Shown here piece by piece: positions 5,651 to 63,805 of a DNA stretch of 64,000 nt (position 1 is the first letter of the stretch; every line of letters starts with the position of its first letter). The DNA is from Candidatus Falkowbacteria bacterium (GTDB lineage Bacteria > Patescibacteriota > Patescibacteriia > UBA11705 > JABHMO01): the NCBI GenBank assembly GCA_018674305.1, contig JABHAL010000013.1:8553-72552 (forward strand). Direction: 5' to 3'. Made by a program: the position numbers and the translations under genes. The notes under the pieces are model-generated. The model was not told the DNA's origin. It saw only the letters and a list, made by a program, of their open reading frames with translations, and did not search any database.

Positions 5651-5950
5651 TTAATCTTTAAGTCGTTCAATTAATCTTTCGGTGATAGACTCGATTACAC
5701 CTGGGCGTTTCTCGAGAGAGTAAACATCTAGATAAAGAGCCATATCAGAAAAGATTAGGTTAAATAGTTTACAAAGACGAATCAGCAGTTCGAGTGAAAT
5801 GGACGTTTTTTTCTTCTCAAGTATGGAAATGTAGGATTCTGAATAATTCAGCCTTTCACCTAGGTCTTTTTGTGACCAACCAGTTTGTGCACGTAGTGCA
5901 GTGATGAGGTTTCCTATGCCAAGCCCAAGAAGTCGTCTATTGTTATCCAT
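5651..5950 (-). CDS. XRE-family HTH transcriptional regulator
   Basis: HTH_3-like segment LRAQTGWSQKDLGERLNYSESYISILEKKK. The start is chosen at the internal Met (MDNNRR), which has an upstream AGGGG SD-like sequence; the ORF-track start at 6082 adds a non-conserved extension. Confidence 0.55.
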   Translation of the reverse strand: MDNNRRLLGLGIGNLITALRAQTGWSQKDLGERLNYSESYISILEKKKTSISLELLIRLCKLFNLIFSDMALYLDVYSLEKRPGVIESITERLIERLKD

Positions 5951-6166
5951 GATGGCCCCTAGATTGTTTGTGTGAAGGAACAATAGTTTTAGTATATAGA
6001 ATGAGGGGTTTTTGTCAACCGATATTAGTAGAGTCAATTCATGAATTGACTCTATTGGTGATATCATTCTAAATTTAGACAATAATCATGGTTGATTCTT
6101 GACTTTTGTATTGTAATAATGTATATTGTTTAGTTAATTGTGTAATTTTACAATGGAGGTAGAGAT

Positions 6167-6608: not shown

Positions 6609-6729
6609 ATTATTGTTAAAACCCTAATATCTAAATAAGAAATTCTAAACAAATTCGAAATTCAAATTTTTTAATACCAAAACTATTGTAACATTTTGGA
6701 TTTAAGGAGTTTGAAATTGTTTAGAAATT

Positions 6730-6768
6730 AGAGTTTAGGATTTAGAATTTTACTAAGTGTGGTATAAT
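6730..6768 (+). promoter_or_regulatory. candidate sigma70 promoter with extended -10 (TGgTATAAT)
   Basis: tgtggtataat at 6758-6768, about 130 nt upstream of the M50 protease gene. Confidence 0.4.
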
Positions 6769-6898
6769 ACTATCATATGTGATATAATTTTGCAAGAGCA
6801 ATTACAGTTAAAAGGTAAAAAGTAAAAGTGAAAAGTGAAAGTTACAAGTATTTGCCTAGGGGTTTTATCAATGAAAACTATACTGTAAACTTTTACCT

Positions 6899-18649: not shown

Positions 18650-19021
18650 ATGATTCAACATAGAACAATGGTAAAATCAGCTGATAACTCTGGCGCAAAA
18701 CGCATGCAGTGTATTAGGGTTTTAGATGGTTATAAAAAGCGGTATGCTAGATTGGGTGACGTTATTACTATAACTGTAAAGGAAGCAAAACCGCATAGCA
18801 TGGTTAAGAAAGGTGAAGTTTTGCACGCTGTAGTTGTAAGAACGAGAAAAGAGAGTCGCCGGAATGATGGTTCGTATATTAGATTTGGTGATAACGCAGT
18901 TGTGATTATTGATCGTAAAACAAAAGAGCCTAAAGGGACACGTATATTTGGTCCAGTTGCCCGAGAGGTAAGAAAAAGAGGCTTCAGTAAAATAATTTCA
19001 TTAGCTCCAGAAGTTCTATAA
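18650..19021 (+). CDS. rplN: 50S ribosomal protein L14
   Basis: MIQ..T...ADNSGAK...CI.VLGG.....A.LGD.I...VK.A.P......GEV..AVVVRT.K. Confidence 0.95.
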
Positions 19022-19033
19022 AGTTATAAATAT

Positions 19034-19393
19034 ATGAGAATAAAAAAAGGTGACAAAGTCCAAATTACAAAGGGTAAAGACCGAGTCAAACGCACAAAAA
19101 AAGGTGAAAAGAAAGAAAAAGGCAACCAAGGCAAAATTGTTCAGGTTTTAAGAACCAAGAAAAAGGTTGTAGTAGACGGTTTAAATTTACGATATAAACA
19201 TGTGCGACCCAAAAGAGAAGGCGAAAAAGGCCAAAGAATTGAATTTCCAGCACCGATTAGTATTTCTAATGTTATGTTGGTATGTCCTAAATGTAGTAAA
19301 GCAACAAGGGTAAGTTATAAATTGCTGGATTCAGATTTAAAAGGTAAGAAAAAAATAAGAATTTGTAAAAAATGTAAAGAAGCTATTGATTAA
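19034..19393 (+). CDS. rplX: 50S ribosomal protein L24 with C-terminal C4 zinc-ribbon
   Basis: KOW motif (IKKGDKVQITKGKDRVK..GKIVQV) plus a C-terminal CPKC...CKKC segment. Confidence 0.85.
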   Translation: MRIKKGDKVQITKGKDRVKRTKKGEKKEKGNQGKIVQVLRTKKKVVVDGLNLRYKHVRPKREGEKGQRIEFPAPISISNVMLVCPKCSKATRVSYKLLDSDLKGKKKIRICKKCKEAID

Positions 19394-19398
19394 TCAAT

Positions 19399-19947
19399 AT
19401 GAATAACCTAAAAAAACAATATAATGATGAAATTGTTCCAGCACTAATGGAAAAGTTTGGTTATAAGAATAAGTTAGCTGTGCCAAATTTGGAAAAAGTA
19501 GTATTGAACGTGGGTGCGGGAAAAGGACTTAAGGATAAAGAATATTTAGTTACAATAAAAAAAACACTAGAATTAATCAGTGGTCAAAAACCAGTTGAAA
19601 CAATTGCTCGTAAATCAATTTCTAATTTCAAGATTAGAGAAGGGATGGTAGTTGGAGCTAAGGTAACTCTACGAGGAAAGAGAATGTGGGATTTTATTGA
19701 AAAACTAGTAAAAGTAACTTGTCCTCGAATCAGAGATTTTCGTGGTTTATCACCAAAAGCGTTTGATAGAAATGGTAATTATTCAATAGGTTTTAATGAG
19801 TATGTTGCTTTTCCTGAAATTATACAGGATGATGTTGAGCGACTACATGGTTTGGAAGTTTGTATAAAAACAACTTCTGATACGGAAGAATTAGGCAAAG
19901 CATTATTAAAAGAATTAGGTTTTCCATTTAAAAAAGAAGATAAATAA
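19399..19947 (+). CDS. rplE: 50S ribosomal protein L5
   Basis: [12 protein letters not shown]......K.......[34 protein letters not shown]...L. Confidence 0.95.
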
Positions 19948-19955
19948 TTGTAACT

Positions 19956-20141
19956 ATGTCAACCAAGGCACAATTCGTAAAATCACAAAATAAACCCAAA
20001 TTTTCAAGTAGAATTGTTAGGCGTTGTTGGCGTTGTGGCCGCGCTCACGGTTATATGAGAAAGTTTGCACTGTGCAGAATATGTTTCAGGGAACTAGCCG
20101 AGAAAGGCGAAATACCAGGAGTTACTAGAAGTAGCTGGTAA
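19956..20141 (+). CDS. rpsN: 30S ribosomal protein S14 type Z (zinc-binding)
   Basis: 61 aa with CxxC...CxxC ([25 protein letters not shown]). Confidence 0.92.
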
Positions 20142-20204
20142 TCACAAGTATCAAAGAGTGAGATACAAATATTAATAAGCTATAAATCAACTTATATTTG
20201 AAAT

Positions 20205-20597
20205 ATGACAATGACAGATCCAATTGCAGACATGCTAACACGCATTCGAAATGCCTCTATGGTTAAGAAGGCGGAAGTTTTGATTCCTTATTCAAAATTT
20301 AAATACGCTGTTGCAAAAATTCTAGAAAAGGAGAAATATGTTGAAGCTGTTGAAAAAACTGACTTAGAATTTAAATATATTAAAATTAAATTAAAATACG
20401 AAGATAATAAACCAGCCATTGGTAAGATTCGACGTGTTAGTCGAGTTGGTCAACGCATTTATGTGAAAAAGGTAGACCTACCAAGAGTTTTGAATAATTA
20501 TGGATTAGCTATTGTTTCAACTTCTAAAGGTATAATGACCAATCGGGAAGCTAAACATTTAGGACTAGGAGGTGAAGTAATTTGTGAGGTTTATTAA
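20205..20597 (+). CDS. rpsH: 30S ribosomal protein S8
   Basis: MTMTDPIADMLTRIRNA...........S.....VA.IL..E.Y.......;  C-terminal STSKGIMT...A...LGGEVICEVY. Confidence 0.95.
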   Translation: MTMTDPIADMLTRIRNASMVKKAEVLIPYSKFKYAVAKILEKEKYVEAVEKTDLEFKYIKIKLKYEDNKPAIGKIRRVSRVGQRIYVKKVDLPRVLNNYGLAIVSTSKGIMTNREAKHLGLGGEVICEVY

Positions 20598-20606
20598 TAT
20601 TAATAT

Positions 20607-21155
20607 ATGTCTAGAATAGGAAAAAAACCAATTGAAATCCCATCAGGGGTCAACGTCACGTTAGACCAAGGTTTAATATTGGTAAAAGGGCCAAAAGGTG
20701 AATTGCAAAGATCAATTCATCCACTTGTCAAAGTGGAAATCAAGGATACTGAGATAAATGTCAAAGTTGATAATGAAGAAAACCATATACAAAAAGCACT
20801 TTGGGGATTATTTCGAAGTTTAATTTACAATATGGTAGTAGGTGTAACTGAAGGATTTGAAAAAAAGTTAGAAATTAATGGAGTAGGTTATAAAGCAAAT
20901 GCTACAGGTCAAAATTTGGTACTTAATGTTGGGTATTCGCATGCTGTAGAATTTAATATACCAGAAGGCATTAATTGTCAGGTTGAAGCTAATGTGATTA
21001 CCATTTCTGGAATTGATAAGCAACAAGTTGGAGAAGTGGCAGCAAATATTCGAAAAGTTCGTAAGCCAGAGCCATACAAAGGTAAAGGAATTAAATATAT
21101 TGACGAAATTATTAGAAGAAAAGCAGGAAAGGCAGCAGCTAAAGCCGCAGCTTAA
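20607..21155 (+). CDS. rplF: 50S ribosomal protein L6
   Basis: MSRIGKKPI.IP.GV.V.......VKGPKGEL two-domain L6. Confidence 0.95.
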   Translation: MSRIGKKPIEIPSGVNVTLDQGLILVKGPKGELQRSIHPLVKVEIKDTEINVKVDNEENHIQKALWGLFRSLIYNMVVGVTEGFEKKLEINGVGYKANATGQNLVLNVGYSHAVEFNIPEGINCQVEANVITISGIDKQQVGEVAANIRKVRKPEPYKGKGIKYIDEIIRRKAGKAAAKAAA

Positions 21156-21168
21156 TTGAAATTATAAT

Positions 21169-21528
21169 ATGAAAAATCGAGAAGTAATAAAATTTAATAA
21201 GTTTAAACTACGACAAAAGAGAACACGGGCCAAGATTGTTGGAAAGTTGGAATTACCACGTTTAACAGTAAAGCGTAGTTTAAAGCATTTTTATATGCAA
21301 ATAATTGACGACAAGAATGGTCAGACTATTTGTGCTGTTTGTGATAAGGATATCAAAGTTGAAGGAAAGAAACCTGTTGAAGTAGCGAAATTAATTGGTC
21401 AGGAATTAGCAAAAAAAGCAAAAGAGAAAAAAATAGAGAAAGTTCGTTTTGATCGTGGTGCATATAAATATCATGGTCGAGTTAAAGCTGCCGCTGAGGG
21501 AGCTCGCGAACAAGGTTTAGAAATTTAA
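21169..21528 (+). CDS. rplR: 50S ribosomal protein L18
   Basis: 119 aa, position and RLTVKRSLKH.Y.QIIDD..G.T... Confidence 0.9.
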   Translation: MKNREVIKFNKFKLRQKRTRAKIVGKLELPRLTVKRSLKHFYMQIIDDKNGQTICAVCDKDIKVEGKKPVEVAKLIGQELAKKAKEKKIEKVRFDRGAYKYHGRVKAAAEGAREQGLEI

Positions 21529-21540
21529 TTATTATATATT

Positions 21541-22089
21541 ATGGCTAAGAAAGAATACAAAAAAAGAGCACCAAGAGAAGCTAGAGAGTTTGATCAAAAA
21601 ATTATTGATTTAGCTAGAGTGACTCGAGTGATGGCTGGCGGAAAGCGCTTAAGGTTTCGCGCCTGTATTGCGATTGGTGATAAAAAAGGTAAATTAGCAA
21701 TAGGCTTAGCCAAGGGAGCTGATGTTGCTCTTGCTGTTAACAAGGCAGTAAACAGAGCACAAAAGCAAATGATCAAGGTACCACTAGTTAATGAAACTAT
21801 TCCACATGAAATTAGAGTAAAATATAAGGCCGCTCAACTGTTGCTAAAACCTGCACCTAAAGGTACTGGGATCAAGGCTGGTGGTGCGATACGCGTGGCT
21901 TTAGAGTTAGCCGGTGTTCCAAATATTGTAGCCAAAATTTTGGGTACTAATAATAAAGTAACTAATGTTAAGGCATTAATGATAGCTTTAGCTTCATTCA
22001 AGACTAAGCCACTCTCTAATGTGAAAAAAGCCAGTTCAAAACAGACGACTACTGATAAAGCTGAAGTTACTGCTGATACAAAAAAATAA
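21541..22089 (+). CDS. rpsE: 30S ribosomal protein S5
   Basis: RVTRVMAGGKRLRFRA...GDKKGKLAIGLAKGADVALAV.KA (dsRBD plus S5 C-terminal domain). Short C-terminal tail. Confidence 0.93.
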   Translation: MAKKEYKKRAPREAREFDQKIIDLARVTRVMAGGKRLRFRACIAIGDKKGKLAIGLAKGADVALAVNKAVNRAQKQMIKVPLVNETIPHEIRVKYKAAQLLLKPAPKGTGIKAGGAIRVALELAGVPNIVAKILGTNNKVTNVKALMIALASFKTKPLSNVKKASSKQTTTDKAEVTADTKK

Positions 22090-25642: not shown

Positions 25643-26899
25643 ATGATTAATCCAGAAGTTCAACAACTAAGTGAAAAAGCCCTAAAAGTTAATTTTAACG
25701 AAATTCAACAGGCTCATTTTGATAGATTAATGTCAGAATTAGAAGCAATCTCAGATGGGTTAGGTTTTGCTGAGCTTAAAGCAAAGGCTGAGGCAGGAAG
25801 TAAGGAAGCACTTCAAGTGATGCGCGATTATATCACCAAGAAAGAGCAGATTGTTAAATTTATTGAAACTAAAGAAATATCAAGGGTAAACTGGGAGTTG
25901 GAGTCAGAACCTGTTCTTGAACTACCAGTGGAGAGCATAGAAGCGTGTGATATTTCACCAGACGGCAGTAGATTGATATATATAACAGAAAGTCCAACCT
26001 CTCAAGGTGTTTATGTTAAATATTTGCAGAACAACAAACCGCCAAAGGAGATTTTTGCTAGGACTGCAAATATAGCAAAGATGAAGGATGTAAAATTTGT
26101 TCCAGATGGAGAAAAGGCTTTTATTGTAACTAATAAGCCGGAACTTTACACAGCTTGGTTGCCAACTGACGTTAAAGAAGGTGATTGGGTTCAAGAAAGA
26201 GTTCGTTTAGCACATGCTAAAATGCACGATTGCGCTGTCTCTCCGAATGGGCAAGATATATTGTTTGTTGGTGATGGTTATGTTGAAATAGCTAATTTGG
26301 AAAATATTCATGATCCTAACAGAACGAGATTGGTTTTAAATCTAAAACATGAAGATCCTGATCGCGCAGAAGGTTATATTCAGGCAGGGGTTTGTTTTTC
26401 TCCTGATGGTAAGATTGCTTATGTTCCATTAAACGAGAAAATTTGTAGAATTGATCTTAATAAAAATGATAACCCAATTGGTTTACCAACTTGGGAGAGT
26501 GATGATGTGGGTGAGTCGATTACTCAATTTGATCCGATTTATTCTGTGGCGATCACTTCTGATGGGGAATATTTATTTACAGGCACACAGGACGGCCAGA
26601 TTTCTAAGTGGGAGACGGCTACTGGTAAAGAGATGGCTTTAACAGTAATGGAAGAAAATGATGGTGATATAAATTCGCTAACCACAGCTATTCAAAAGAT
26701 GATTGTTTCTCCGGATAATAAACATTTAATTGTGGGGGATGATTTTGGAAGGTTAACTTTTATTGATATAGAGACAGGTGAACATATTAAAGAAATTCAG
26801 CTACCACAAGCCAGTAGTGTTACAGAATTGAAATTAGTTGGTGAGGATACGATTTATGCGCAAACTGAGACTATGATTCATCGAGTGAAGAGCATATAA
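25643..26899 (+). CDS. family-X paralog (distal copy): conserved N-terminal helical module + beta-propeller-like C-terminus
   Basis: The N-terminal ~75 aa MINPEVQQLSEKALKVNFNEIQQAHFDRLMSELEAISDGLGFAELKAKAEAGSKEALQVMRDYITKKEQIV match the eight paralogs at 42950-51925. The C-terminus has repeated SPDG/SPNG/TSDG..GxxDG..I blades (WD40/PD40-like). Confidence 0.6.
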   Translation: MINPEVQQLSEKALKVNFNEIQQAHFDRLMSELEAISDGLGFAELKAKAEAGSKEALQVMRDYITKKEQIVKFIETKEISRVNWELESEPVLELPVESIEACDISPDGSRLIYITESPTSQGVYVKYLQNNKPPKEIFARTANIAKMKDVKFVPDGEKAFIVTNKPELYTAWLPTDVKEGDWVQERVRLAHAKMHDCAVSPNGQDILFVGDGYVEIANLENIHDPNRTRLVLNLKHEDPDRAEGYIQAGVCFSPDGKIAYVPLNEKICRIDLNKNDNPIGLPTWESDDVGESITQFDPIYSVAITSDGEYLFTGTQDGQISKWETATGKEMALTVMEENDGDINSLTTAIQKMIVSPDNKHLIVGDDFGRLTFIDIETGEHIKEIQLPQASSVTELKLVGEDTIYAQTETMIHRVKSI

Positions 26900-42949: not shown

Positions 42950-43921
42950 ATGATCAATCCAGAACAGCAATTGAAGGAAAGCGCACTTAGGGTGAACTTC
43001 GATGAACGTCAGCAAGATTATTTTGATAGACTAATGTCTGAATTAGAAGTTATTTCTCAGGGCAAGGGTTTTTTAGAGTTGGAAAAAGAGGCTTTAGCCG
43101 GGACAGTAGTAGCTCTTCAGCGTTTACGTGAATATATTGCCAAGAAAGAACAGATTGTGGAGTTTATCGAGAATAAAGAAATACCACCTGTTTTTGTTAA
43201 GACGATTGAATCCATCACTCCGGAAGGAGTAGAGGTTAAAATACAGTTACAAATGGAATTGGAGTCTTGGAAAGGGGCTTATGCTCTAGCTGGCATTGAT
43301 TGGGTTGAGTTTCCTGATAAGTTGGAGGTCACCCAAGAACAAGCTACACGTATGCAGGAATTAATTGCCAAGTATGGTTTTGATAAAATGATGATTATTC
43401 CAGATGAAATAAATGGCAATAACGAATTTAGTGATAATAAAAATTATGAATTAACTAATTTACTTCTTGATGGAGTTGATAAGATCTCTACTACTAATGC
43501 TTATCGTGGTTCCGGCGGTTCAATTAGCCGGGTGCGGGATAATAGGCAGGGATTGAGAATTGTTTTAATGAAAAAAGTTTCTGATTTTAATGAAAGTCAA
43601 TTATATAGAAGCACTTTAGCCGTTAGATGTGATCAAGTTCAAAAGACAGAACCTTTTAAAGAACCGGAGATATCAGGTTTAACGTTGTCTGAGTTTGCTG
43701 TCTGGCAGTGGATGTATTACAAAGCGACTTCTAAATTTTGGGGCTCAGATGGAGGAACTGGAGTTTGGCTACCAGAAACAAAATTTGCTTCAGATAGATA
43801 TATTACGCCAATCGCTTTAATGAAGGAGACTGGTCAAAAAATTGCATTCACAGAGAGAGCACCGGATGAAAGTTACCCAAATGCAGGAACTTTGTTTGGC
43901 GCAGTGTTTCCGATTGAGTAG
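42950..43921 (+). CDS. family-X paralog A: conserved N-terminal module + C-terminal domain type 2
   Basis: N-terminus MINPEQQLKESALRVNFDERQQDYFDRLMSELEVISQGKGFLELEKEA...LQRLREYIAKKEQIVEFIENKE. The C-terminal domain is shared with paralog B (GLRIVLM..FNESQ..SGLTLSEF..GxVFP). Confidence 0.6.
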   Translation: MINPEQQLKESALRVNFDERQQDYFDRLMSELEVISQGKGFLELEKEALAGTVVALQRLREYIAKKEQIVEFIENKEIPPVFVKTIESITPEGVEVKIQLQMELESWKGAYALAGIDWVEFPDKLEVTQEQATRMQELIAKYGFDKMMIIPDEINGNNEFSDNKNYELTNLLLDGVDKISTTNAYRGSGGSISRVRDNRQGLRIVLMKKVSDFNESQLYRSTLAVRCDQVQKTEPFKEPEISGLTLSEFAVWQWMYYKATSKFWGSDGGTGVWLPETKFASDRYITPIALMKETGQKIAFTERAPDESYPNAGTLFGAVFPIE

Positions 43922-44001
43922 ATGTACGAACTTATAAGAAATTACGAACAATTACTTAATTACTACTTACTATTTACCATTTACTATTTACTTATTAACT
44001 T

Positions 44002-45709: not shown

Positions 45710-46747
45710 ATGTTTACTCCAGAAGCAAGTCAATTAAATGAAAGTTCACTTAGAGCTAATTTTAATGAAGCACAGACAGACCATTTTAACCGTTTGATGG
45801 ATGAGTTGGAGCATATATCACAAGGGTATGGCTTTCAAGAGATCAAAGCTATTGCTGAAGCTGGTGACCCACAAGCTTTGAAAGTTTTACGACAATATGT
45901 TTCAAAAAAAGAACAGGTTGTATGTTTTATTGAAAGAAAAATAATCTTGGTTCAAGATATTCGGGCAACTACACCTGAAGGAGTGGAGGTAGAATTTCAT
46001 TTACAAGAACAGTTGCGTAAATGGCAATCCTTTTTTATGGAAAAAGGAATTGATTGGGTGGATTGGCCACAGGAAATTAAAGTTAGTCAGGAAACACAAG
46101 AGCAGATGCAGAAACTTATTGAACGAGCTGGATTTAACCGTTTGGCCGTCATCCCTGAAGGTGTGGTTGGAGATCCAGACTTTGAGGAGAGTATTGATGG
46201 GAAAGGACGAAAAATTAATAAGCTAGTTACTCCAGCAGAACATTATAGTGAACTGTTTAGAAAAATGACAGTTGGCTCTGATTATAACCCACCTGATTTT
46301 TTCAAAAGCGATTTACTAGAGGGTGGAATTGATGGGACTTTAGATACACGCAAGGATTTGAGATTAGTTTTATTTACAGATGTCCCTGGACACGACGGAT
46401 GTAAGCATACTAAAAGTTTTAATAATGAATCGTGGGAGGCCTTACAAAGAAGAAAGCCCATGTATCCTAATATTGATGGTTTAACTTTATCAGAGTATTT
46501 TATATTAGAGCGTGATCATTTTGATCGTACTGGTCAGCATTTGTTTACTGATTCTAGTAATATTTGTTCTGCTAGCGTGCGACCAGCAACTGATCGAGTA
46601 CCAACTGTTCGTTGGGGGACTCAGAACAATCGCATTCTTTTTAAATCTAGACCAAAGACATACGAACCAGACGCAAGTAGAAGATCTTCAAGTAGGCCTT
46701 CAATAATTACTAAAACCGCTGGGGTTTTTCCAGCAGAAGCTTTCTAA
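45710..46747 (+). CDS. family-X paralog B: N-terminal module + C-terminal domain type 2
   Basis: N-terminus MFTPEASQLNESSLRANFNEAQTDHFNRLMDELEHISQGYGFQEIKAIAEAGDPQALKVLRQYVSKKEQVV. The C-terminus is related to paralog A. Confidence 0.6.
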   Translation: MFTPEASQLNESSLRANFNEAQTDHFNRLMDELEHISQGYGFQEIKAIAEAGDPQALKVLRQYVSKKEQVVCFIERKIILVQDIRATTPEGVEVEFHLQEQLRKWQSFFMEKGIDWVDWPQEIKVSQETQEQMQKLIERAGFNRLAVIPEGVVGDPDFEESIDGKGRKINKLVTPAEHYSELFRKMTVGSDYNPPDFFKSDLLEGGIDGTLDTRKDLRLVLFTDVPGHDGCKHTKSFNNESWEALQRRKPMYPNIDGLTLSEYFILERDHFDRTGQHLFTDSSNICSASVRPATDRVPTVRWGTQNNRILFKSRPKTYEPDASRRSSSRPSIITKTAGVFPAEAF

Positions 46748-46750
46748 AAT

Positions 46751-47527
46751 ATGCAGCCAGAGTTAGGCCATTTGAGTGAACAAGGCTTACGCGCTGATTT
46801 CAACAAGAAGCAGCGCGTTTATTTTGATAAATTAATGTCTGAATTAGAAGAAATCTCAGGTGGTTTAGGTTTTTCTGAACTTGAAGCGGAAGCCCGGTCT
46901 GTGTTGAGTTCATCGGCGACTTCAGTCGGCAGCTCAAGTGAAGCCATTCAAAAACTAAGAGATTATATCGCCAAGAAAGAGCAGATTGTGGGGTTTATTG
47001 AGCAAAAAGAATTACCTGAGACATATGAATTACGCGATGAAGAGCTTGAGGTTGGTGATGAGGTTTATTTGATTGAGCCAACAACTGGTTTCGTTCGAAA
47101 AGGGAAAATTTCTAATTTCTTTGAGAAGGATGGTGCTGATTGGGCTAGGGTTATTACTGGCGATGATGGCAAACAACTGAGCTTTTGTAAAATAGAAAAT
47201 TTAGCTAAAAATAAACCTAAAAAACTTGATGCTGGAGAGCTTGGAGAACTTGTGGTGTTGGATTTGAGTAAGTATCAAGGTTTTGGTGTAGGGGATATCT
47301 ATCATAATTTTAGAAGCAAAAATAGGAAAATTGAGGGATTTTGTTCGCCCGACAATGCAGTAGAATCTAATGGCTTTAAACCTAGTGGCGTGGCTGTTGT
47401 TTTCAGTTATGGAGAGGGTATTTTCCATAGCCATAAAGAGAAAATGTTTGGTTCCGAGTCAATCGGTAGTTTTAAAGAAGCCATTGAAAATATGATGTAT
47501 AAAAAAATAGAAGACCCGAATTTATGA
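46751..47527 (+). CDS. family-X paralog C: N-terminal module (with Ser-rich insertion) + SH3/KOW-like C-terminus
   Basis: FDKLMSELEEISGGLGFSELEAEA...KLRDYIAKKEQIVGFIEQKELPE, then VGDEVYLIEP..KGKI and LAKNKPKK..LDLSKYQGFGVGDIY, as in paralogs E-H. 3-nt gap from B and 4-nt overlap with D. Confidence 0.6.
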   Translation: MQPELGHLSEQGLRADFNKKQRVYFDKLMSELEEISGGLGFSELEAEARSVLSSSATSVGSSSEAIQKLRDYIAKKEQIVGFIEQKELPETYELRDEELEVGDEVYLIEPTTGFVRKGKISNFFEKDGADWARVITGDDGKQLSFCKIENLAKNKPKKLDAGELGELVVLDLSKYQGFGVGDIYHNFRSKNRKIEGFCSPDNAVESNGFKPSGVAVVFSYGEGIFHSHKEKMFGSESIGSFKEAIENMMYKKIEDPNL

Positions 47528-48813
47528 TTAATCCAGAAATTCAACAATTAGCAGAAAAAAGCCTTAAGGTTAATTTCACAGAAGTTCAACAACAACGTTT
47601 TGATAAATTAATGTCTGAATTAGAAGAAATCTCAGGTGGTTTGGGTTTTTCTGAACTCAAAGCGAAAACGTTGAGTCTACCACCAAATTCAGTTGCTGGA
47701 AAAAGAGCGCTTCAGCGTCTTCGCGATTATATTACCAAAAAAGAAAAGATTGTTGTGTTCATTGAGACAAGAGACATGAGTCCAAATTGGCAGGATTACA
47801 AAAAGACACGTGAATTATCATCAATTTATGGTGATTCTGAAAGACCTTTTTCAGCTGACTGGTTGGATGAGGATAATATGTTGGTTCGTTATACTATTTT
47901 TGGTGGTGATGAGGATACTATGGCCATGGTTTATCCGGAGTCTGGGGCTATGTTTGATGGTCTTCGAGAGGGACTTTTCAAAGGAGGGATTTCTTTCTAT
48001 AAAATGATTGATAATCAAAGCGCCTATTGCATTGATTCTAAAAATTTTTTATATAAACTTGATTGGACAGGTAAGGCAATGCTTGATGCAGAAATAGTAT
48101 CTTTAGGTAGAATAAATAGAGATAATCTTGAGGCATCTGAAATTGCTATAGTCGGGAAAGACATTTTGTTAATTTCTATGACTGATGATAAGCTGATTAT
48201 GTGGGATGTTAGTGCAAAACAAAAGATTTTCACTTTTCAAGGAAAACATGAGGACAGTATTATGAGTACACAAAGATTATCACCAGCTAGTGTTGTCACT
48301 TTGGATCTCAGTGGTGGAATTGCAGCTTGGAATTTATTAGGAAATAAAGAAAATGTTTGGTATGAAACTATTGCCCCTGCTACAAATCACTTTATCGATA
48401 TGCAATGCCAGGATGATAATTTTGTTAATAGCGTGGTTACAAAAGATAATATTATTGTACATGCCAACGTAACAAGCAAGTTCAAAACGGAATCAGATGT
48501 GCCAGATATTACACGTTCCGAGCTTATATTTCTAAATAAAAAGGGAAAAGAGCAATATAGGGTTGAGTTGCCAAAGGACTTGCAAATATTCGATAAAATT
48601 TATGAGATTCAGCTGACTGATGACAATAAATTACTGTTGGGAATGGAATCAGGCGAAGTTTTGGTTTATGATATTAAAACGAATAAGATTGTCAGTACAA
48701 TTGGCGATCCAGATGAAGAAAAAAAAGGCGTTGAGAGAATGCAGGTTTTGCCAAATAACCAATTGATGGTAACGTATGGAGATGCTACGATTGCGTTTTT
48801 CGATGAAAAGTAG
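47524..48813 (+). CDS. family-X paralog D: N-terminal module + beta-propeller-like C-terminus
   Basis: N-terminus MINPEIQQLAEKSLKVNFTEVQQQRFDKLMSELEEISGGLGFSELKAK. The C-terminus has WD-like blades (DDKLIMWDVSAKQKIFTFQGKHEDSI, GGIAAWNL, GEVLVYDIKTNKIVSTIG). Confidence 0.6.
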   Translation: MINPEIQQLAEKSLKVNFTEVQQQRFDKLMSELEEISGGLGFSELKAKTLSLPPNSVAGKRALQRLRDYITKKEKIVVFIETRDMSPNWQDYKKTRELSSIYGDSERPFSADWLDEDNMLVRYTIFGGDEDTMAMVYPESGAMFDGLREGLFKGGISFYKMIDNQSAYCIDSKNFLYKLDWTGKAMLDAEIVSLGRINRDNLEASEIAIVGKDILLISMTDDKLIMWDVSAKQKIFTFQGKHEDSIMSTQRLSPASVVTLDLSGGIAAWNLLGNKENVWYETIAPATNHFIDMQCQDDNFVNSVVTKDNIIVHANVTSKFKTESDVPDITRSELIFLNKKGKEQYRVELPKDLQIFDKIYEIQLTDDNKLLLGMESGEVLVYDIKTNKIVSTIGDPDEEKKGVERMQVLPNNQLMVTYGDATIAFFDEK

Positions 48814-48952
48814 GAGCAGTAATTGGTAATCAGTCCCGATGAATCAGCAAAGCTGATTATCGGGATCCCGCCTTACGTCGGGATAATTAGTAACTAGTAA
48901 ATAGTAGTGAGTAACTAAATAATTTTTTAAACTAGATCAAAATTCAAAGAAC

Positions 48953-49648
48953 ATGTTAACTCCTGAACACAATTTAACTGAACGCTCACTCCAAGCTAAC
49001 TTCACCGAAGTTCAGCAAGCTCATTTCGATAAATTAATGTCTGAATTAGAAGTGATTTCAGATGGTTTGGGTTTTGCTGAGCTTAAAGCAAAGGCTGAAG
49101 AGGGAGATAAAGAAGCCCTTCAGGTAATGAGGGATTATATTACTAAGAAAGAACAGATTGTTGAGTTTATTGAGAAGAAGGAAGTGCCTGAGAATGAGTG
49201 GCGTGAAGAGGAACTTAAAGTTGGAGATGAGGTCTTTGTTTTGAATACTGCGCATTTTGGAGAAAAAGTGAAAATTTTAGATATTAACGATTTAGGTAAA
49301 GTTAAAAGGTATTATGTTAAGGTCAAGGAAGGTGCCAATACAAATTTACGATTTTTTCAGGATTGGTATTTAGCCAAAAATAAACCAGAAGAATTTGATG
49401 CTGATCGAGCGGGTAAAATTTATTTACTTGATTTAAAAAAATATAACGGGCTTACTGTCGGCGATTTTTTTTCTAAAGGTGTAGAAAATAGAGAAATTTT
49501 AGGTTTCAAAATGCCAGAACATCCCCATCACCGAGTCGGATTAACGATTGTTGTTAAAAAAGACGGCGAGGCAACATTTTTAATGTCATACAAAAGATTC
49601 ATAGAACTAAATGAGGAGCAAAATTATAAAAAAGTCGAAAAGTCTTAA
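48953..49648 (+). CDS. family-X paralog E (231 aa): N-terminal module + SH3/KOW-like units
   Basis: N-terminus MLTPEHNLTERSLQANFTEVQQAHFDKLMSELEVISDGLGFAELKAKAEEGDKEALQVMRDYITKKEQIVEFIEKKEVPENEW. The C-terminus is colinear with F, G and H. Confidence 0.65.
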   Translation: MLTPEHNLTERSLQANFTEVQQAHFDKLMSELEVISDGLGFAELKAKAEEGDKEALQVMRDYITKKEQIVEFIEKKEVPENEWREEELKVGDEVFVLNTAHFGEKVKILDINDLGKVKRYYVKVKEGANTNLRFFQDWYLAKNKPEEFDADRAGKIYLLDLKKYNGLTVGDFFSKGVENREILGFKMPEHPHHRVGLTIVVKKDGEATFLMSYKRFIELNEEQNYKKVEKS

Positions 49649-49689
49649 ACACGTAACACATAACACGTATCCTGTAACAATCATAAAAA

Positions 49690-50385
49690 ATGTTAAATCC
49701 CGAACAACAATTAATAGAAAGATCTCTTCACGCTAACTTCACTGAAGTTCAGCAACAACATTTTGATAAACTAATGTCTGAGCTGGAACAGATTTCAGGT
49801 GGTTTAGGTTTTTCTGAATTTAAAGCTAAAGCTGAAACTGGTGACAAAGAAGCATTACAAGTAATGCGTGATTATATCGCCAAGAAAGAGCAGGTTGTTG
49901 AGTTTATTGAGAAGAAGGAAGTTCCTGAGAATGAATGGCGAGAGGAGGAGCTTAAAGTTGGAGACGAGGTTTTTATATTGTATGCCGCACATTTTGGAGA
50001 AAAAGTAAAAATTATAGATATTGACGATTTAGGTAAAGTTAAAAAGTATCATGTTCAGGTCAGTGTAGTTGACGATACAAATTCTCGGTTTTTGAAAGAT
50101 AGTCAATTAGCTAAAAATAAACCAGAAAAATATTATGCTGACAGATTGAGTGAAATTGATTTACTGGACTTGAAAAAATATATAGATCTTTGTGTGGACG
50201 ATGTTTATTCTGATGGTCAGGAGATAAAAGAAATTATTGGGTTTATGATGCCAATCGCTGCAAATCATGAGGATGGTTTAACAATAGTGTATAAAGCAAC
50301 TAATGGTCAGACATATGCAACATCATACAGACGTTTTAAACAGATTAATCGTGGACTCGATTATAAAAAAGTAGAAAAGTCTTAA
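49690..50385 (+). CDS. family-X paralog F (231 aa)
   Basis: Full-length homolog of E (N-terminal module plus VGDEVFIL..GEKVKII..LAKNKPEKY..LLDLKKY). Confidence 0.65.
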   Translation: MLNPEQQLIERSLHANFTEVQQQHFDKLMSELEQISGGLGFSEFKAKAETGDKEALQVMRDYIAKKEQVVEFIEKKEVPENEWREEELKVGDEVFILYAAHFGEKVKIIDIDDLGKVKKYHVQVSVVDDTNSRFLKDSQLAKNKPEKYYADRLSEIDLLDLKKYIDLCVDDVYSDGQEIKEIIGFMMPIAANHEDGLTIVYKATNGQTYATSYRRFKQINRGLDYKKVEKS

Positions 50386-50447
50386 GCGTATAGCGTGAAT
50401 CGTATAGCGCGTAACACATATCCCGTACCCCGTAACAAAATTAAAAT

Positions 50448-51158
50448 ATGATCAATCCCGAGCAACAATTAACAGAAAAATCTCTCCATGCTAACTTTAC
50501 CGAAGTTCAGCAACAACATTTTGATAAACTAATGTCTGAGTTGGAGGTGATCTCAGGTGGATTAGGTTTTGCTGAACTTAAAGAGAAGGCTGACGCGGGT
50601 AATAAAGAAGCATTGCAAGTAATGCGTGATTATATCGCCAAGAAAGAGCAAATTGTTGAGTTTATTGAAAAGAAGGAGATGCCTGAGAATGAATGGCGAG
50701 ATGAGGAATTCAAGTTTGGTGATGAAGTCTATATAGTGGGAGGGGGTTATTCTGGTAGAAAAGGAACAGTTGAGAATAATGATAGTTCTGGTAACGTAAT
50801 TCGAGTACTGGTTTTTAGCAAAGATGAGAATGGCGATGCCGAAATAATTTATTTTAATCCTGAAGATGTAGCCAAAAATAAACCGGAAAAAATCCAATCT
50901 GACCGACTTGGTGAAATTGAGTTACTTGATTTGAAAAAATATGAAGATTATGCTGTTGGTGATATTTTTGTGCGACATAATAGGACTAAAACAAAAACAA
51001 GAGAGATTTTAGGTTTTAGTATGCCTGATAGCTTTACTCACGAAGAAGGCCTGAAAATTGTTTTTAAATATGGTGATGGTGATGTGTATACTGCACGTCG
51101 CTTCAGATTCGAGAATGAAATTATTGCTTTAGTTTACAAAAAAGTAGAAAAGCCTTAA
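50448..51158 (+). CDS. family-X paralog G (236 aa)
   Basis: Full-length homolog of E and F. Its first ~65 nt are identical to H, and it has a near-identical 62-nt upstream spacer. Confidence 0.65.
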   Translation: MINPEQQLTEKSLHANFTEVQQQHFDKLMSELEVISGGLGFAELKEKADAGNKEALQVMRDYIAKKEQIVEFIEKKEMPENEWRDEEFKFGDEVYIVGGGYSGRKGTVENNDSSGNVIRVLVFSKDENGDAEIIYFNPEDVAKNKPEKIQSDRLGEIELLDLKKYEDYAVGDIFVRHNRTKTKTREILGFSMPDSFTHEEGLKIVFKYGDGDVYTARRFRFENEIIALVYKKVEKP

Positions 51159-51220
51159 GCGTATAGCGTGAATCGTATAGCGCGTAACACATATCCCGTA
51201 TCCCGGAACAAAATTAAAAT

Positions 51221-51925
51221 ATGATCAATCCCGAGCAACAATTAACAGAAAAATCTCTCCATGCTAACTTTACCGAAGTTCAACAACGATATTTTGATAA
51301 ATTAATGTCTGAATTGGAAGTGATCTCGGATGGTTTGGGTTTTACTGAACTTAAAGCGACTGCTGAAGCGGGTAATAAAGAGGCTCTTCAAGTAATGAGG
51401 GATTATATCTCCAAGAAAGAACAGATTGTTGAGTTTATTGAGAAAAAAGAATTGCCAGAAGTAAATGAATTGAGAGACGAGGAATTAAAAGTTGGTGATG
51501 AGGTTTTTATATTAGAGAATTTTTCATTTGGAGCAACGGGCAAAATATTAAGTATTCCTAGAAGTTCGGATAGTAAAGCTTTTATGGTTGATGGAATTAA
51601 GGATAGTAATAATCCTTCAATGAAAGAATATGGATTTGAAGGACGATTGTTGGCCAAAAATAAGTCAGAAAAATATAATGCTGATAGACTTGGTGAAATA
51701 GATTTGCTAGACTTAAAAAAGTATAACGATATAACAGTTGGTGATATTTATCGCTCCGAGGATGGTAAAGGAGAAATAGAAGTTGTTGGCTTAAGTATGC
51801 CAATAAATGCTAAGATTGAAGATGGTCTATTAATTGTGTATAAAATAGGTAATGGGCAAACGTATGCCAAGTTAAATCGCTGGTTTCGGCGAGATCTTAA
51901 AGCTCGTAATTATAGAAAAGCATAG
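51221..51925 (+). CDS. family-X paralog H (234 aa)
   Basis: Full-length homolog of E, F and G. Confidence 0.65.
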   Translation: MINPEQQLTEKSLHANFTEVQQRYFDKLMSELEVISDGLGFTELKATAEAGNKEALQVMRDYISKKEQIVEFIEKKELPEVNELRDEELKVGDEVFILENFSFGATGKILSIPRSSDSKAFMVDGIKDSNNPSMKEYGFEGRLLAKNKSEKYNADRLGEIDLLDLKKYNDITVGDIYRSEDGKGEIEVVGLSMPINAKIEDGLLIVYKIGNGQTYAKLNRWFRRDLKARNYRKA

Positions 51926-52057
51926 AAATGAAACCATGTATTCGTAGCAAAATCGTAAGTAAATTAAGATGAAGACTTTATTCCCGTAATTTAATTTATT
52001 AATCACTTTAGTTATCTTTTTTCGCCCTCTTTATCCTCTTAATCCTATTTAAAAAAT

Positions 52058-53755
52058 ATGAACAAAATAAAACAACAATTAGCGGATTACTTAAGTAAAA
52101 AATTAAAGATTAAAGTTGAACCAAGTCAATTTACTGAGCCGCCAAATCGTGAAATGGGCGACCTCGCATTACCATGTTTTGATTTGGCGGCACAATTGAA
52201 ACTTGATCCTCAAGCGACCTGCCAGGAGATCCTTAAACGCGCGCAGGCCGACATGCTGGAGATTATTGAAGAAGTAAAAGCGGCTGGGCCTTATCTTAAT
52301 TTTGTAATTAAAAGCGCATATCTAAACAAGCTGGTTCTGGAAAGTAAATTTGAACCCGAAAAGAAAGTTACAGAAAAAGTAATGATTGAGTATTCTCAGC
52401 CAAACACTCATAAAGAATTTCACGTTGGCCATTCTCGAAACGCAATTCTTGGTGCAGCTTTGGTAAAGATTCATCGTTTCCTAAATAAAAAACCTAAAAA
52501 TGTAATTGCTGCTAACTATATTGGCGACACTGGAGTGCATGTAGCTAAAGTATTGTGGTACATAACCAAGTTTAATTCTAATATTGATATACCCAAGGGT
52601 GTAACTAACTCAGAATACCTTGGCCAAGCTTATACTGAAGCTGTGAAAAAGCTGGAAGAAGATGAAACCCTAAATCAGGAAGTTAGCGATATTCACAAAG
52701 AGCTGGAAGCCGGCGATAAAGATTTAGTTTCCTTGTGGAGATCAACCAAAGAGTGGAGCATGATAGGTTTTTATGATGTATACAATTTACTTAATGTTGA
52801 ATTTGATGAATGGTTTTGGGAAAGTGAAGAAGAAGCCGTTGGAAAAAAGATTGTTCAGAATATTCTTGATGAAAAAACAATTCCACAAATTAGAAAAAGT
52901 GATGGCGCCGTGATTGCTGATTTAAAGGAGTTCAAGCTGGAAGTCTTAGTTTTGATCAAGTCTGATGGAAACGCGCTTTACGGCGCAAAGGATATTCCAC
53001 TTGGTATGAAAAAGTTTGATAAGTTCAAAGTTAAAAAATCTATCTATGTGGTTGATAATCGACAGTCATTGTATATAAAACAAGTTTTTAAGCTTTTGGA
53101 TTTACTGGGATATGAGGATCGTGAGAAAATTCACGTGGCTTATGATTTTGTAACATTGCCAGACGGTGCGATGGCTTCAAGAAAAGGGAACGTGGTAACT
53201 TTTTCCAAGTTTTATAATGAGATCTGGAAGAAAACAATTGAAGAAACCAAAGAACGTCATGATGAGTGGCCGAGGGATAGGATTGAAGCAGTGGCCAGTA
53301 AAATTGCGTTGGCAGCTATTAAGTTTTTTATGTTGAAATATGATAATAATTCGGTAATAGTTTTTGATGTTAAGAAGGCCTTAGCATTTGAAGGTGATTC
53401 TGGTCCGTATTTACTTTATACTTTAGCTAGGATTAATTCTATTTTACGAAAAACCAAACTTAAAGGTAAGGTTGATTATTCTTTGCTAACTGATAAAACT
53501 GAAAAAGCTTTGATTTTACATATGAGTAATTTTAATGAAATTGTAGTCAAAGTTGCTCAAGATAACGTGCCAATGCGACTCTGCACCTACTTAATTGATC
53601 TAACTCAACTGTATAATAATTTTTATCATCAGTGCCCAGTTTTGAAATCTGAGGAAAACTTACGTTTAGCACGTTTGACTTTATGCTCAAAAGTGAAATT
53701 TTTGCTTGAAAAGGGACTAAATTTATTGAATATTGACCCTGTTGATGAAATGTAG
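52058..53755 (+). CDS. argS: arginyl-tRNA synthetase
   Basis: N-terminal Arg_tRNA_synt_N-like region, class I HIGH-like EFHVGHSRNAILG, and a C-terminal DALR anticodon-binding-like region. 565 aa. Confidence 0.9.
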   Translation: MNKIKQQLADYLSKKLKIKVEPSQFTEPPNREMGDLALPCFDLAAQLKLDPQATCQEILKRAQADMLEIIEEVKAAGPYLNFVIKSAYLNKLVLESKFEPEKKVTEKVMIEYSQPNTHKEFHVGHSRNAILGAALVKIHRFLNKKPKNVIAANYIGDTGVHVAKVLWYITKFNSNIDIPKGVTNSEYLGQAYTEAVKKLEEDETLNQEVSDIHKELEAGDKDLVSLWRSTKEWSMIGFYDVYNLLNVEFDEWFWESEEEAVGKKIVQNILDEKTIPQIRKSDGAVIADLKEFKLEVLVLIKSDGNALYGAKDIPLGMKKFDKFKVKKSIYVVDNRQSLYIKQVFKLLDLLGYEDREKIHVAYDFVTLPDGAMASRKGNVVTFSKFYNEIWKKTIEETKERHDEWPRDRIEAVASKIALAAIKFFMLKYDNNSVIVFDVKKALAFEGDSGPYLLYTLARINSILRKTKLKGKVDYSLLTDKTEKALILHMSNFNEIVVKVAQDNVPMRLCTYLIDLTQLYNNFYHQCPVLKSEENLRLARLTLCSKVKFLLEKGLNLLNIDPVDEM

Positions 53756-54298: not shown

Positions 54299-54332
54299 AC
54301 TCATGAATCATGTATCATGAAGCAACACTTTA

Positions 54333-62566: not shown

Positions 62567-63358
62567 ATGGAATTATCAATTATAATTTTAAATTACAAAC
62601 AGAGGGGCTTAATCAAGAATTGTGTTAAGGCCCTTTTAGAGTCTGAGGTAAATTTCCCTTATGAAATTATTGTTGTTGATAATGATTCGAAGGACGGGAT
62701 TGAAGATTTAATCAAAGAGCGTTTTTCTCAGGTTAGGTTTATTCAGACTGGTGCAAATTTGGGTATGGGTGGTGGTAATAATGTTGGCATAAAAAATGCA
62801 CAAGGCAAACATGTAATGGTAATGAACCCGGATATCTTTGTTTCTCAAGATTCTTTGCAGAAATTAGTTGATCATATAAAGAATGAACCAGAAATTGGTT
62901 TGTTAGCACCACGATTGTTAAATCCTGATCGTACATTGCAATATACTTGTTATCGTTGGCATAAATTGTTTACCCCAATGTACCGCAGAACTTTTTTGGG
63001 TAAATTACCTTGGGCGAAAAAAGAACTTGATCGATTTTTAATGACCGACTGGGATCACAATGATACTCGAGAAGTTGATTGGATACAGGGTTCATGCTGG
63101 GTTTCGCCAAAAGAGGTACTTGATAAGATCGGGGCATTTGATGATCGTTATTTTATGTATTTTGAAGATACCGACCTTTGTCGTCAAATTAAACAAGCTG
63201 GTCACCAGGTCGTTTATCATCCTGAAGTGGAAGTTGTGCATTTACATCGTCGGCAGTCCGCTGATCAGGGTGGTATGAAGTCCTTATTTAGTAAATTGAC
63301 TCGTATTCATATTTATAGTTGGCTGAAATATATGTTGAAATGGCGCAAAAACACGTAA
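62567..63358 (+). CDS. family-2 glycosyltransferase
   Basis: The start is set at MELSIIILNYKQ. IVVDNDSKDG and NPDIFV motifs. The ORF-track start at 62498 adds an unlikely 23-aa extension. Confidence 0.7.
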   Translation: MELSIIILNYKQRGLIKNCVKALLESEVNFPYEIIVVDNDSKDGIEDLIKERFSQVRFIQTGANLGMGGGNNVGIKNAQGKHVMVMNPDIFVSQDSLQKLVDHIKNEPEIGLLAPRLLNPDRTLQYTCYRWHKLFTPMYRRTFLGKLPWAKKELDRFLMTDWDHNDTREVDWIQGSCWVSPKEVLDKIGAFDDRYFMYFEDTDLCRQIKQAGHQVVYHPEVEVVHLHRRQSADQGGMKSLFSKLTRIHIYSWLKYMLKWRKNT

Positions 63359-63394
63359 CACATAGCACATAACACTTGACATTGGAGGGGTAGA

Positions 63395-63805
63395 ATGCAA
63401 TACGGTAAAGAACTGCCCGTTGAACAAAGAGATTCTCAAGCTTTGTTTGAATTTAAATTTGAAGGAACAGAAGAGGAGTTTAAAGCTTGGCTAATCAAGC
63501 TGGTTCAAGAGTTCATGCAATGGTGTGATCCTAAAGTACATCGGTATTCCATTGATGACGTTGTTTCTATGCCTTGGAATTCCGAGGGTGGAATTTATGG
63601 GTTTGAAATTGAAGGCAAACTTTTTGCCTGGTGTAAAATGTATTTCTTCGATGATGCTGGGCGGTATGGTCAAAAAAGAGCATTGTTGTTCAGAGATCAT
63701 CATAGTCAAAGCGCTCGTCAAGAAGTTATGAGAATTGCTGAAGCTTTTGAAAAATATTTAAAGGAAAAGCAGGTTGAGTTTGAACTTTTTTTCCTTAAAC
63801 GTTAA
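63395..63805 (+). CDS. hypothetical protein
   Basis: 136-aa ORF with no recognisable motif. Confidence 0.35.
   Translation: MQYGKELPVEQRDSQALFEFKFEGTEEEFKAWLIKLVQEFMQWCDPKVHRYSIDDVVSMPWNSEGGIYGFEIEGKLFAWCKMYFFDDAGRYGQKRALLFRDHHSQSARQEVMRIAEAFEKYLKEKQVEFELFFLKR

Follow-up and report, generated by a model that had tools for sequence, protein, structure and literature searches.

The stretch of DNA analyzed here, hereafter the window, comprises 64,000 nt of contig JABHAL010000013.1 of Candidatus Falkowbacteria bacterium (GCA_018674305.1) and carries at positions 48953-51925 of its + strand an array of four genes of about 230 amino acids (aa), designated E, F, G, and H. According to the open reading frame list and the alignments the four genes lie head to tail and are colinear over their full length, as had been stated in an original prediction made for this region from the sequence. 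The two junctions F/G and G/H share a nearly identical tract of 149 nt, which is best explained as a short non-reciprocal gene-conversion patch and is the only recent event in the E-H array; the amplification that produced the four copies is old. The genes, their spacers and the two tract copies are as follows:

48953-49648, + strand: gene E, 231 aa; N-terminal helical module followed by two SH3/KOW-like beta barrels (fold predicted from the model of its paralog G)
49649-49689, + strand: E/F spacer, 41 nt; units ACACGTA ACACATA ACACGTA TCCTGTA ACAATCA
49690-50385, + strand: gene F, 231 aa; 100% identical to HN858_05150 from a Candidatus Falkowbacteria metagenome-assembled genome
50386-50447, + strand: F/G spacer, 62 nt in nine units; GCGTATA GCGTGAA TCGTATA GCGCGTA ACACATA TCCCGTA CCCCGTA ACAAAAT TAAAAT
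50448-51158, + strand: gene G, 236 aa; its AlphaFold2 model is the basis for the fold
51159-51220, + strand: G/H spacer, 62 nt; two differences from the F/G spacer
51221-51925, + strand: gene H, 234 aa; final gene of the array, adjoining argS
50361-50509, + strand: first copy of the tract; runs from the final 25 nt of F through the spacer into the opening 62 nt of G
51134-51282, + strand: second copy of the tract; runs from the final 25 nt of G through the spacer into the opening 62 nt of H

The Tract at the F/G and G/H Junctions

When compared base by base in the register of the start codons (-87 to +61), the two tract copies match at 145 of 149 positions (97%) and differ at the remaining four. 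The 5' edge of the tract is sharp, with 36% identity in the 22 nt upstream, and identity in the 100 nt downstream is 84%. The spacers within the tract differ at exactly two positions (50428, C/T; 50433, T/G), the two to three differences between near-identical 62-nt spacers that had been predicted being close to this count, and the shared 5' ends of G and H, previously put at about 65 nt, measured 62 nt from the ATG and 76 nt with the last 14 spacer bases included. The E/F spacer is, as also proposed, a shortened version of the other two: of the final 41 nt of the F/G spacer it shares 31 (76%), and it is 21 nt shorter, which equals three 7-nt units.

In the coding part of the tract 18 variable sites in a row carry the same base in G and H, a run that was equaled in none of 10000 permutations (p<1e-4). 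Synonymous divergence (dS) and nonsynonymous divergence (dN) among E-H were calculated by the Nei-Gojobori method. Between G and H dS was 0.09 over the first 21 codons vs. 0.85 over codons 22-88, and over the same first 21 codons F stood at a dS of 0.71 from G and 0.96 from H. Beyond the tract the identity of G with F or H is only 33-60% for the middle and the 3' portion of the gene. The prediction of gene conversion among the paralogs was therefore supported, both by the 149-nt tract and by the clustered conflicting site patterns described below (p = 0.005), and the comparisons yielded neither of the two outcomes that had been named as contrary to it, i.e., uniform divergence without identical tracts or unrelated spacers: the tract is significant and the spacers are homologous.

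Age of the Copies and Older Recombination

The nucleotide identity of E-H is 65-75% in codon-aligned comparisons of all pairs. Pairwise dS amounts to 0.9-1.4 for complete genes and to 0.5-1.3 for the N-terminal module (N-module, about 85 aa); the module has a dN/dS of about 0.1, compared with 0.2-0.6 for the remainder. The low synonymous divergence of whole copies that is expected of a recent amplification was not found among the pairs. As a reference we used a related species, whose orthologous locus (L014, ENA ERZ24794647 NODE_14650) is about 84% identical to the window at the nucleotide level and carries a single E-H-type gene, here called X. Between the window and this locus tyrS, argS, bactofilin, and DAGK have a dS of 0.57-0.72, and all compared genes fall within 0.57-0.80 save a 147-aa open reading frame (1.02) and the H/X pair (1.04). 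Since the paralogs are at least as diverged at synonymous sites as the housekeeping genes of the two species, they are at least as old as the species split, and the recent tandem amplification that had been proposed (dS 0.9-1.4 among copies vs. 0.57-0.80 for housekeeping orthologs) therefore does not hold. The E-H amplification is old, with synonymous divergence near saturation.

Sites of the three possible four-taxon patterns are not evenly mixed along the E-H alignment but gather in separate segments (Kruskal-Wallis p = 0.005). Sites that group E with F and G with H are concentrated at the 5' end and in the first barrel, those that group E with H and F with G in the middle of the N-module, and 17 of the 18 sites that group E with G and F with H lie within the 3' half of the genes. 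Between E and F the middle segment is younger (dS 0.49) than the N-modules (dS 1.04). These clustered conflicting patterns show older recombination among E-H, and the family as a whole is a recombining mosaic with sparse exchanges.

One further pair of family members was noticed on a large contig of the same organism, where two genes of 352 aa (L008:4820-5878 and L009:6027-7085) about 80 kb apart are identical over 852 nt of the gene body. They differ at 30 positions in the first 190 nt and their flanks are unrelated, which is the reverse of the G/H pattern; judged by its sequence, this pair appears to have been duplicated or converted only recently. Homogenization of the N-module within arrays was considered as well and was rejected, as its identity is 74.2% within vs. 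73.9% between arrays.

Heptamer Repeats in the Spacers and Elsewhere

The features that surround the array, including the repeat array upstream of E, are listed here:

42950-43921, + strand: gene A, 323 aa; N-module and a C-terminal domain of the type found in B
45710-46747, + strand: gene B, 345 aa; N-module and a C-terminal domain of another type, common to A and B
46751-47527, + strand: gene C, 258 aa; fifth gene of the E-H subfamily and the one that has diverged most
47524-48813, + strand: gene D, 429 aa; N-module and a WD40-like beta-propeller
48834-48883, + strand: two adjacent GC-rich hairpins after D; folding z -2.9, 1 of 200 shuffles as good
48884-48917, + strand: 7-nt array upstream of E; TAACTAG-like, 4.9 copies (Tandem Repeats Finder and lag-7 scan)
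25643-26899, + strand: dispersed family member, 418 aa; N-module and WD40 propeller (PF00400 above the gathering cut-off)

The original prediction had overlooked C as a fifth colinear gene and the occurrence of the N-module also in A, B, D, and the dispersed gene at 25643-26899. The hairpins at 48834-48883 (TCCCGAT..ATCGGGA and CCCGCC..GTCGGG) have no T-run; they separate D from the E-H block and, judging by the predicted folding, may represent a terminator, an attenuator or a transcript boundary.

Arrays with a period of 7 nt were detected by Tandem Repeats Finder in many intergenic regions of the window, and the autocorrelation of intergenic sequence has its maxima at lags 7 and 14. A threshold of 16 or more matches out of 21 at lag 7, applied to 109 intergenic regions of the window and seven other loci of the organism, was passed by 25 regions; 13 passed at lag 14, 0-4 at the other lags and about 0.2 after shuffling. 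Besides the array upstream of E, 7-nt arrays lie in the window at 15-53, 2544-2599, 6720-6750, 6809-6840, 43960-43992, 54301-54321, and 63350-63375, with more in the seven other loci (L007-L013). The units vary by site (ACACATA, TAACTAG, TTACTAT, ATACTTA, ATACCCA, and others), the arrays contain 3-9 units, and most of them end 3-60 nt ahead of the next start codon. A Shine-Dalgarno (SD)-like motif precedes 26 of 183 genes (about 14%). On the sense strand the units look poor in G, with a G content of 7% in the E/F spacer and 18-19% in the F/G and G/H spacers.

Arrays that resemble ACACATA/CGTA also stand ahead of other family members. At 63350-63386 the units ACACGTA ACACATA GCACATA ACACTTG were observed directly upstream of a 136-aa gene (63395-63805) that is unrelated and has no Pfam match. 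Because an array of the E-H type thus precedes an unrelated gene, the motif type is not specific to the family. The suggestion that cgtaacacata acts as a promoter found no support, since a scan for sigma-70 sites returned no sigma-70-like site within the spacers and the motif is one unit type among genome-wide 7-nt repeats.

Spacer length, of interest for a possible phase-variable simple-sequence contingency locus, differs by a 21-nt step among the E-H spacers and by one 7-nt unit between species (A-tyrS spacer); no difference was seen among the near-identical contigs. In the A-tyrS spacer (window 43922-44001 vs. 5546-5682 of L014) the relative was seen to have an extra GC-rich hairpin of 50 nt in addition to one extra TACGAAC heptamer. 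Judged by composition and placement, the spacers are most likely slippage-prone, unstructured translation leaders for SD-less initiation rather than promoters.

Copy Number among Contigs and in the Related Species

Contigs carrying F were collected and 23 were read, 21 undisplayed ones having been merged with L001 because their neighboring genes were mostly the same proteins. All 23 share the same gene neighborhood. The contigs aligned to the window as DNA, L001 and L002, come from two ENA samples and are 100% identical to it over 9.8-12.7 kb, and a JGI contig (L005) is 100% identical over 50531-52231, which includes the G/H junction. Copy-number variation between strains had been considered likely; none was seen in this set, in which the neighborhood is constant and both aligned contigs are fully identical.

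No copy-number polymorphism within the population was found, and the sole deviant contig (L003) is indistinguishable from a chimera. This contig (ENA HAWL17-1 scaffold_49399, 1-316 vs. window 51221-51385) is a three-part mosaic: its first 255 nt are identical to the upstream region and the first 100 nt of the paralog L009:10290, about 60 nt after that match neither source, and over the last 1470 nt the contig agrees with H and argS at 100% identity. An ectopic recombinant and an assembly chimera both fit this structure, and we did not use it as proof of a rearrangement at the strain level.

The related species has another copy number. Its locus reads A, tyrS, a gene of 147 aa, B, a 56-aa remnant of C, D, X, and argS, so that four E-H genes and C in the window face one gene and a C remnant in the relative. 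C has been cut there to its N-module (L014 8428-8598) through the loss of about 600 nt, equivalent to window 46867-47464. X is 58% identical to H at the amino acid level (dS 1.04, dN 0.35) and hence as distant from H as the paralogs are from each other. Loss in the relative and gain in the window lineage both fit the copy difference.

Directly 3' of X lie the units GCACATA ACACGTA ACATGTA ACACATA, i.e., the unit type of the E/F, F/G, and G/H spacers, which suggests that the duplicated unit consisted of a gene and its 3' repeat array. Upstream of X, at L014 9893-10000, a hairpin was observed (CGTCTTCCTCC...GGGGGAAGAAAGAG) that occurs also at L009 ~5950-6026 upstream of the family member L009:6027. 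Upstream regions seem to travel with family members.

Evaluation of Alternative Explanations

Taken together, we propose that the E-H genes and C derive from an old local expansion that was followed by short exchanges among the copies, of which the 149-nt patch is the youngest, while the spacers slipped in steps of 7 nt; we assign this reading a probability of about 0.7. The duplicated unit would have been a gene together with the 7-nt-repeat array behind it, and because the repeat array was part of the unit the copies came to be separated by spacers of the same repeat type. The paralogs would then have approached synonymous saturation while still swapping short segments. In the youngest exchange one junction, comprising the 3' end of a gene, the spacer and 62 nt of the next gene, would have been copied onto the neighboring junction, and slippage in 7-nt steps would subsequently have altered spacer length.

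A recent tandem amplification by continuing unequal crossing-over, accompanied by copy-number differences between strains, is the reading closest to the original prediction. It would account for a same-strand tandem array with homologous spacers, for a related species that has one copy and not four, and for the contigs of other assemblies that break at the repeats. It is nevertheless improbable given the dS and nucleotide identity of all E-H pairs and the constant neighborhood of the 23 contigs with F. After a recent unequal crossover one would furthermore expect a hybrid gene matching one of its parents completely up to the 3' end; no whole gene segment is identical on one side and G falls to 33-60% identity with F or H beyond the tract, so that ongoing crossing-over is unsupported. 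Purifying selection on a cis-element (a translation leader, a regulator site or a promoter reaching into the first codons) might also have kept the two junctions alike, and the frequency of 7-nt arrays just upstream of starts in an SD-poor genome, as well as the ACACATA/CGTA arrays ahead of other family members and one unrelated gene, would agree with such a role. Yet the synonymous sites of G and H are all identical in the 62 coding nt, whereas F has diverged at the same codons (dS 0.71 from G and 0.96 from H) and its spacer is 21 nt shorter and 76% identical; selection can therefore not easily explain the G/H identity. The tract moreover takes in the last 25 nt of the upstream genes, where it stops abruptly at 36% identity, and both spacer differences lie inside repeat units. 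RNA structure at the junctions did not exceed shuffled controls (z +0.8 to +1.0), an Rfam search of the junctions returned no family match, and no sigma-70-like site was present. We thus consider selection on a cis-element unlikely, if somewhat less so than the recent amplification.

The tract might finally be an artifact of assembly, with the reads of the two junctions having been collapsed or cross-threaded, and assemblies do break or turn chimeric in this region: L004 has a gap of 100 N at 50455 and L005 starts at 50531, both at or near the repeated tract, and L003 is a mosaic. The same sequence is however present in separately assembled contigs from several samples (L001, L002, and L005), and the tract copies retain four fixed differences, which indicates that the junctions were resolved as distinct. 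An artifact is accordingly the least probable of the three.

The Wider Gene Family

A census of the family covered the window and the loci L007-L013, which belong to two large contigs. It comprises at least 39 members, all on one strand, in nine tandem arrays; the two large contigs hold arrays of 3, 3, 6, 7, 4, 4, and 3 members. Exact protein matches link the window, L007-L009, L012, and L013 to the HN858 assembly. Proteins of L010 correspond to those of another assembly (HN643), and for L011 no direct match was obtained; these two loci share a contig with L008, L009, and L013. Family members occupy about 13% of the 64-kb window. N-module identity is 74% within and between arrays, and the C-termini fall into 21 clusters, the largest of which is formed by C and E-H.

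The family is extremely narrow, with 58 matching clusters among 5.8 billion sequences. The N-module profile retrieved 58 representatives among 1.84 billion, in which the module nearly always begins within the first ten residues. A scan of GTDB species-representative genomes found no relative, and a scan of metagenomes returned only two contigs, both linked to the source organism. On two ENA contigs of higher GC content (L018 and L019, GC 43%) remotely related N-modules were noticed, which the window profile matches at E 1e-10 to 1e-13; the proteins concerned have leucine-rich-repeat (LRR) C-termini and are in tandem, with at least three members in 3.4 kb. No description of the family was found in a literature search, and no gene recurring beside the arrays as a possible partner was found. 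To judge from these matches, the family is uncharacterized and seen almost only in Candidatus Falkowbacteria. A second repeat family was suspected at 18650-22089 and rejected, the region being a ribosomal protein operon.

Protein Architecture

The AlphaFold2 model of G (mean predicted local distance difference test score, pLDDT, 86) has four helices at residues 4-75, a first barrel at about 88-145, a second at about 155-217 and a C-terminal helix. Modeled in isolation, the N-module forms a three-helix bundle that has no specific structural neighbor. Both the N-module and the LAKNKPE...LLDLKKY core, which had been described as conserved, are present in the E-H alignments. WD40 propellers occur in other members, the repeats scoring above the cut-off in the gene at 25643-26899; LRR-like repeats were recognized by eye in P0075-P0080.

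Searches of Pfam, NCBIfam, PHROGs, and PADLOC assigned neither the N-module nor E-H to a family; the signals obtained were weak, namely KOW below the Pfam threshold and a weak Pan3_PK. In the phage and defense libraries the matches were at chance level only, with E values no better than 0.006 in PHROGs and 0.017 in PADLOC (Csx23, protein D), and a Foldseek comparison with viral structures returned only matches to KOW-like proteins with low TM scores. An NGN domain was not matched (NCBIfam nusG, 14.2 bits vs. a cut-off of 135.7), and the N-terminus is an all-helical bundle. No WXG100 or LXG domain, typical of type VII secretion substrates, was matched by Pfam among the proteins, the secretion machinery in the genome not having been searched for. 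Toxin, nuclease or deaminase domains had no match, and no small genes are interleaved between abutting members. No obvious signal peptide or lipobox was seen by eye, no predictor having been run.

Two further identities of the N-terminus were considered. An F-box (PF00646/PF12937) was rejected as these models did not reach the level required, and a marginal profile match from PDB sequences to the AAA lid of PAN (E 0.005) was uncorroborated and was not relied on.

Comparison with Known Systems

Segmental gene conversion in multicopy gene families is known from the opa and pilS genes of Neisseria, the vlp and vsa genes of Mycoplasma and vls of Borrelia. E-H resemble these systems in that same-strand paralogs with conserved and variable blocks exchange short tracts and become mosaic genes. 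Unlike the cassette systems they have no expression site with silent cassettes, every copy being a full open reading frame with its own start codon, and no switching at the population level was seen among the 23 contigs compared here. Since most E-H copies are saturated at synonymous sites, exchange must be rare, which is a further difference from the cassette systems.

Intergenic heptamers arranged as direct repeats are known from cyanobacteria as short tandemly repeated repetitive (STRR) sequences. The repeats described here share with the TAACTGA heptamers, which MacGregor (2015, PMC4679880) reported ahead of start codons in Beggiatoaceae, Cyanobacteria, and Bacteroidetes, the tandem intergenic 7-nt units, the position of many of them upstream of starts and a genome in which SD motifs are rare. 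Compared with TAACTGA and with STRR, there is here no single dominant unit, the arrays are short (3-9 units) and the host belongs to the candidate phyla radiation (CPR).

By its modeled fold, the barrel part of E-H appears similar to KOW, SH3-like and Tudor proteins such as NusG, Spt5, RfaH, the ribosomal proteins L24/eL27, and OapB. Unlike NusG and RfaH, E-H lack an NGN domain or a family match and combine two barrels with an unrelated helical module at the N-terminus. In Parachlamydiaceae, F-box/BTB proteins bearing LRR or WD40 domains have been described as expanded families (PMC4209131); they likewise reside in reduced, symbiont-type genomes and join a small N-terminal helical domain to variable WD40 or LRR regions, a likeness of common architecture and not of homology. 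Polymorphic toxins have a conserved N-terminus with variable C-termini and recombine among tandem cassettes (Zhang et al., 2012, PMC3482391). The present family also connects a conserved N-terminal region to highly variable C-termini. Measured against the toxins, its C-termini appear to be binding scaffolds, with no toxin fold and no small immunity genes interleaved.

Implications

The exchange of short tracts among tandem paralogs is an ordinary phenomenon, and it is the orphan family and the heptamer leaders that carry the interest of this locus. The N-module would serve as a handle that docks to a common partner or route, while the fast-evolving C-terminal domains would set the binding specificities. 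By analogy in architecture, though not by homology, with F-box/WD40/LRR adaptor families or with the effector repertoires of symbionts, the proteins might tentatively be regarded as modular binders, with a plausible role in contacts to a host or partner cell. Equally speculative is the broader possibility of a previously undescribed system of the CPR lineage, in which dozens of handle proteins would present interchangeable modules to a common machine or export route and be diversified by recombination, their 7-nt leaders being independent of SD motifs and tunable by slippage. The occurrence of intergenic heptamers in an SD-poor CPR genome extends a poorly understood phenomenon to a new phylum and offers a testable link to translation initiation. 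To our knowledge, almost nothing has been established on how CPR bacteria recognize or act on their partners, and an orphan family with at least 39 copies in a genome-reduced CPR bacterium is a natural candidate for such a role. If the arrangement of handle and interchangeable modules is correct, these bacteria would recognize or manipulate a host or partner cell by means of a recombining repertoire.

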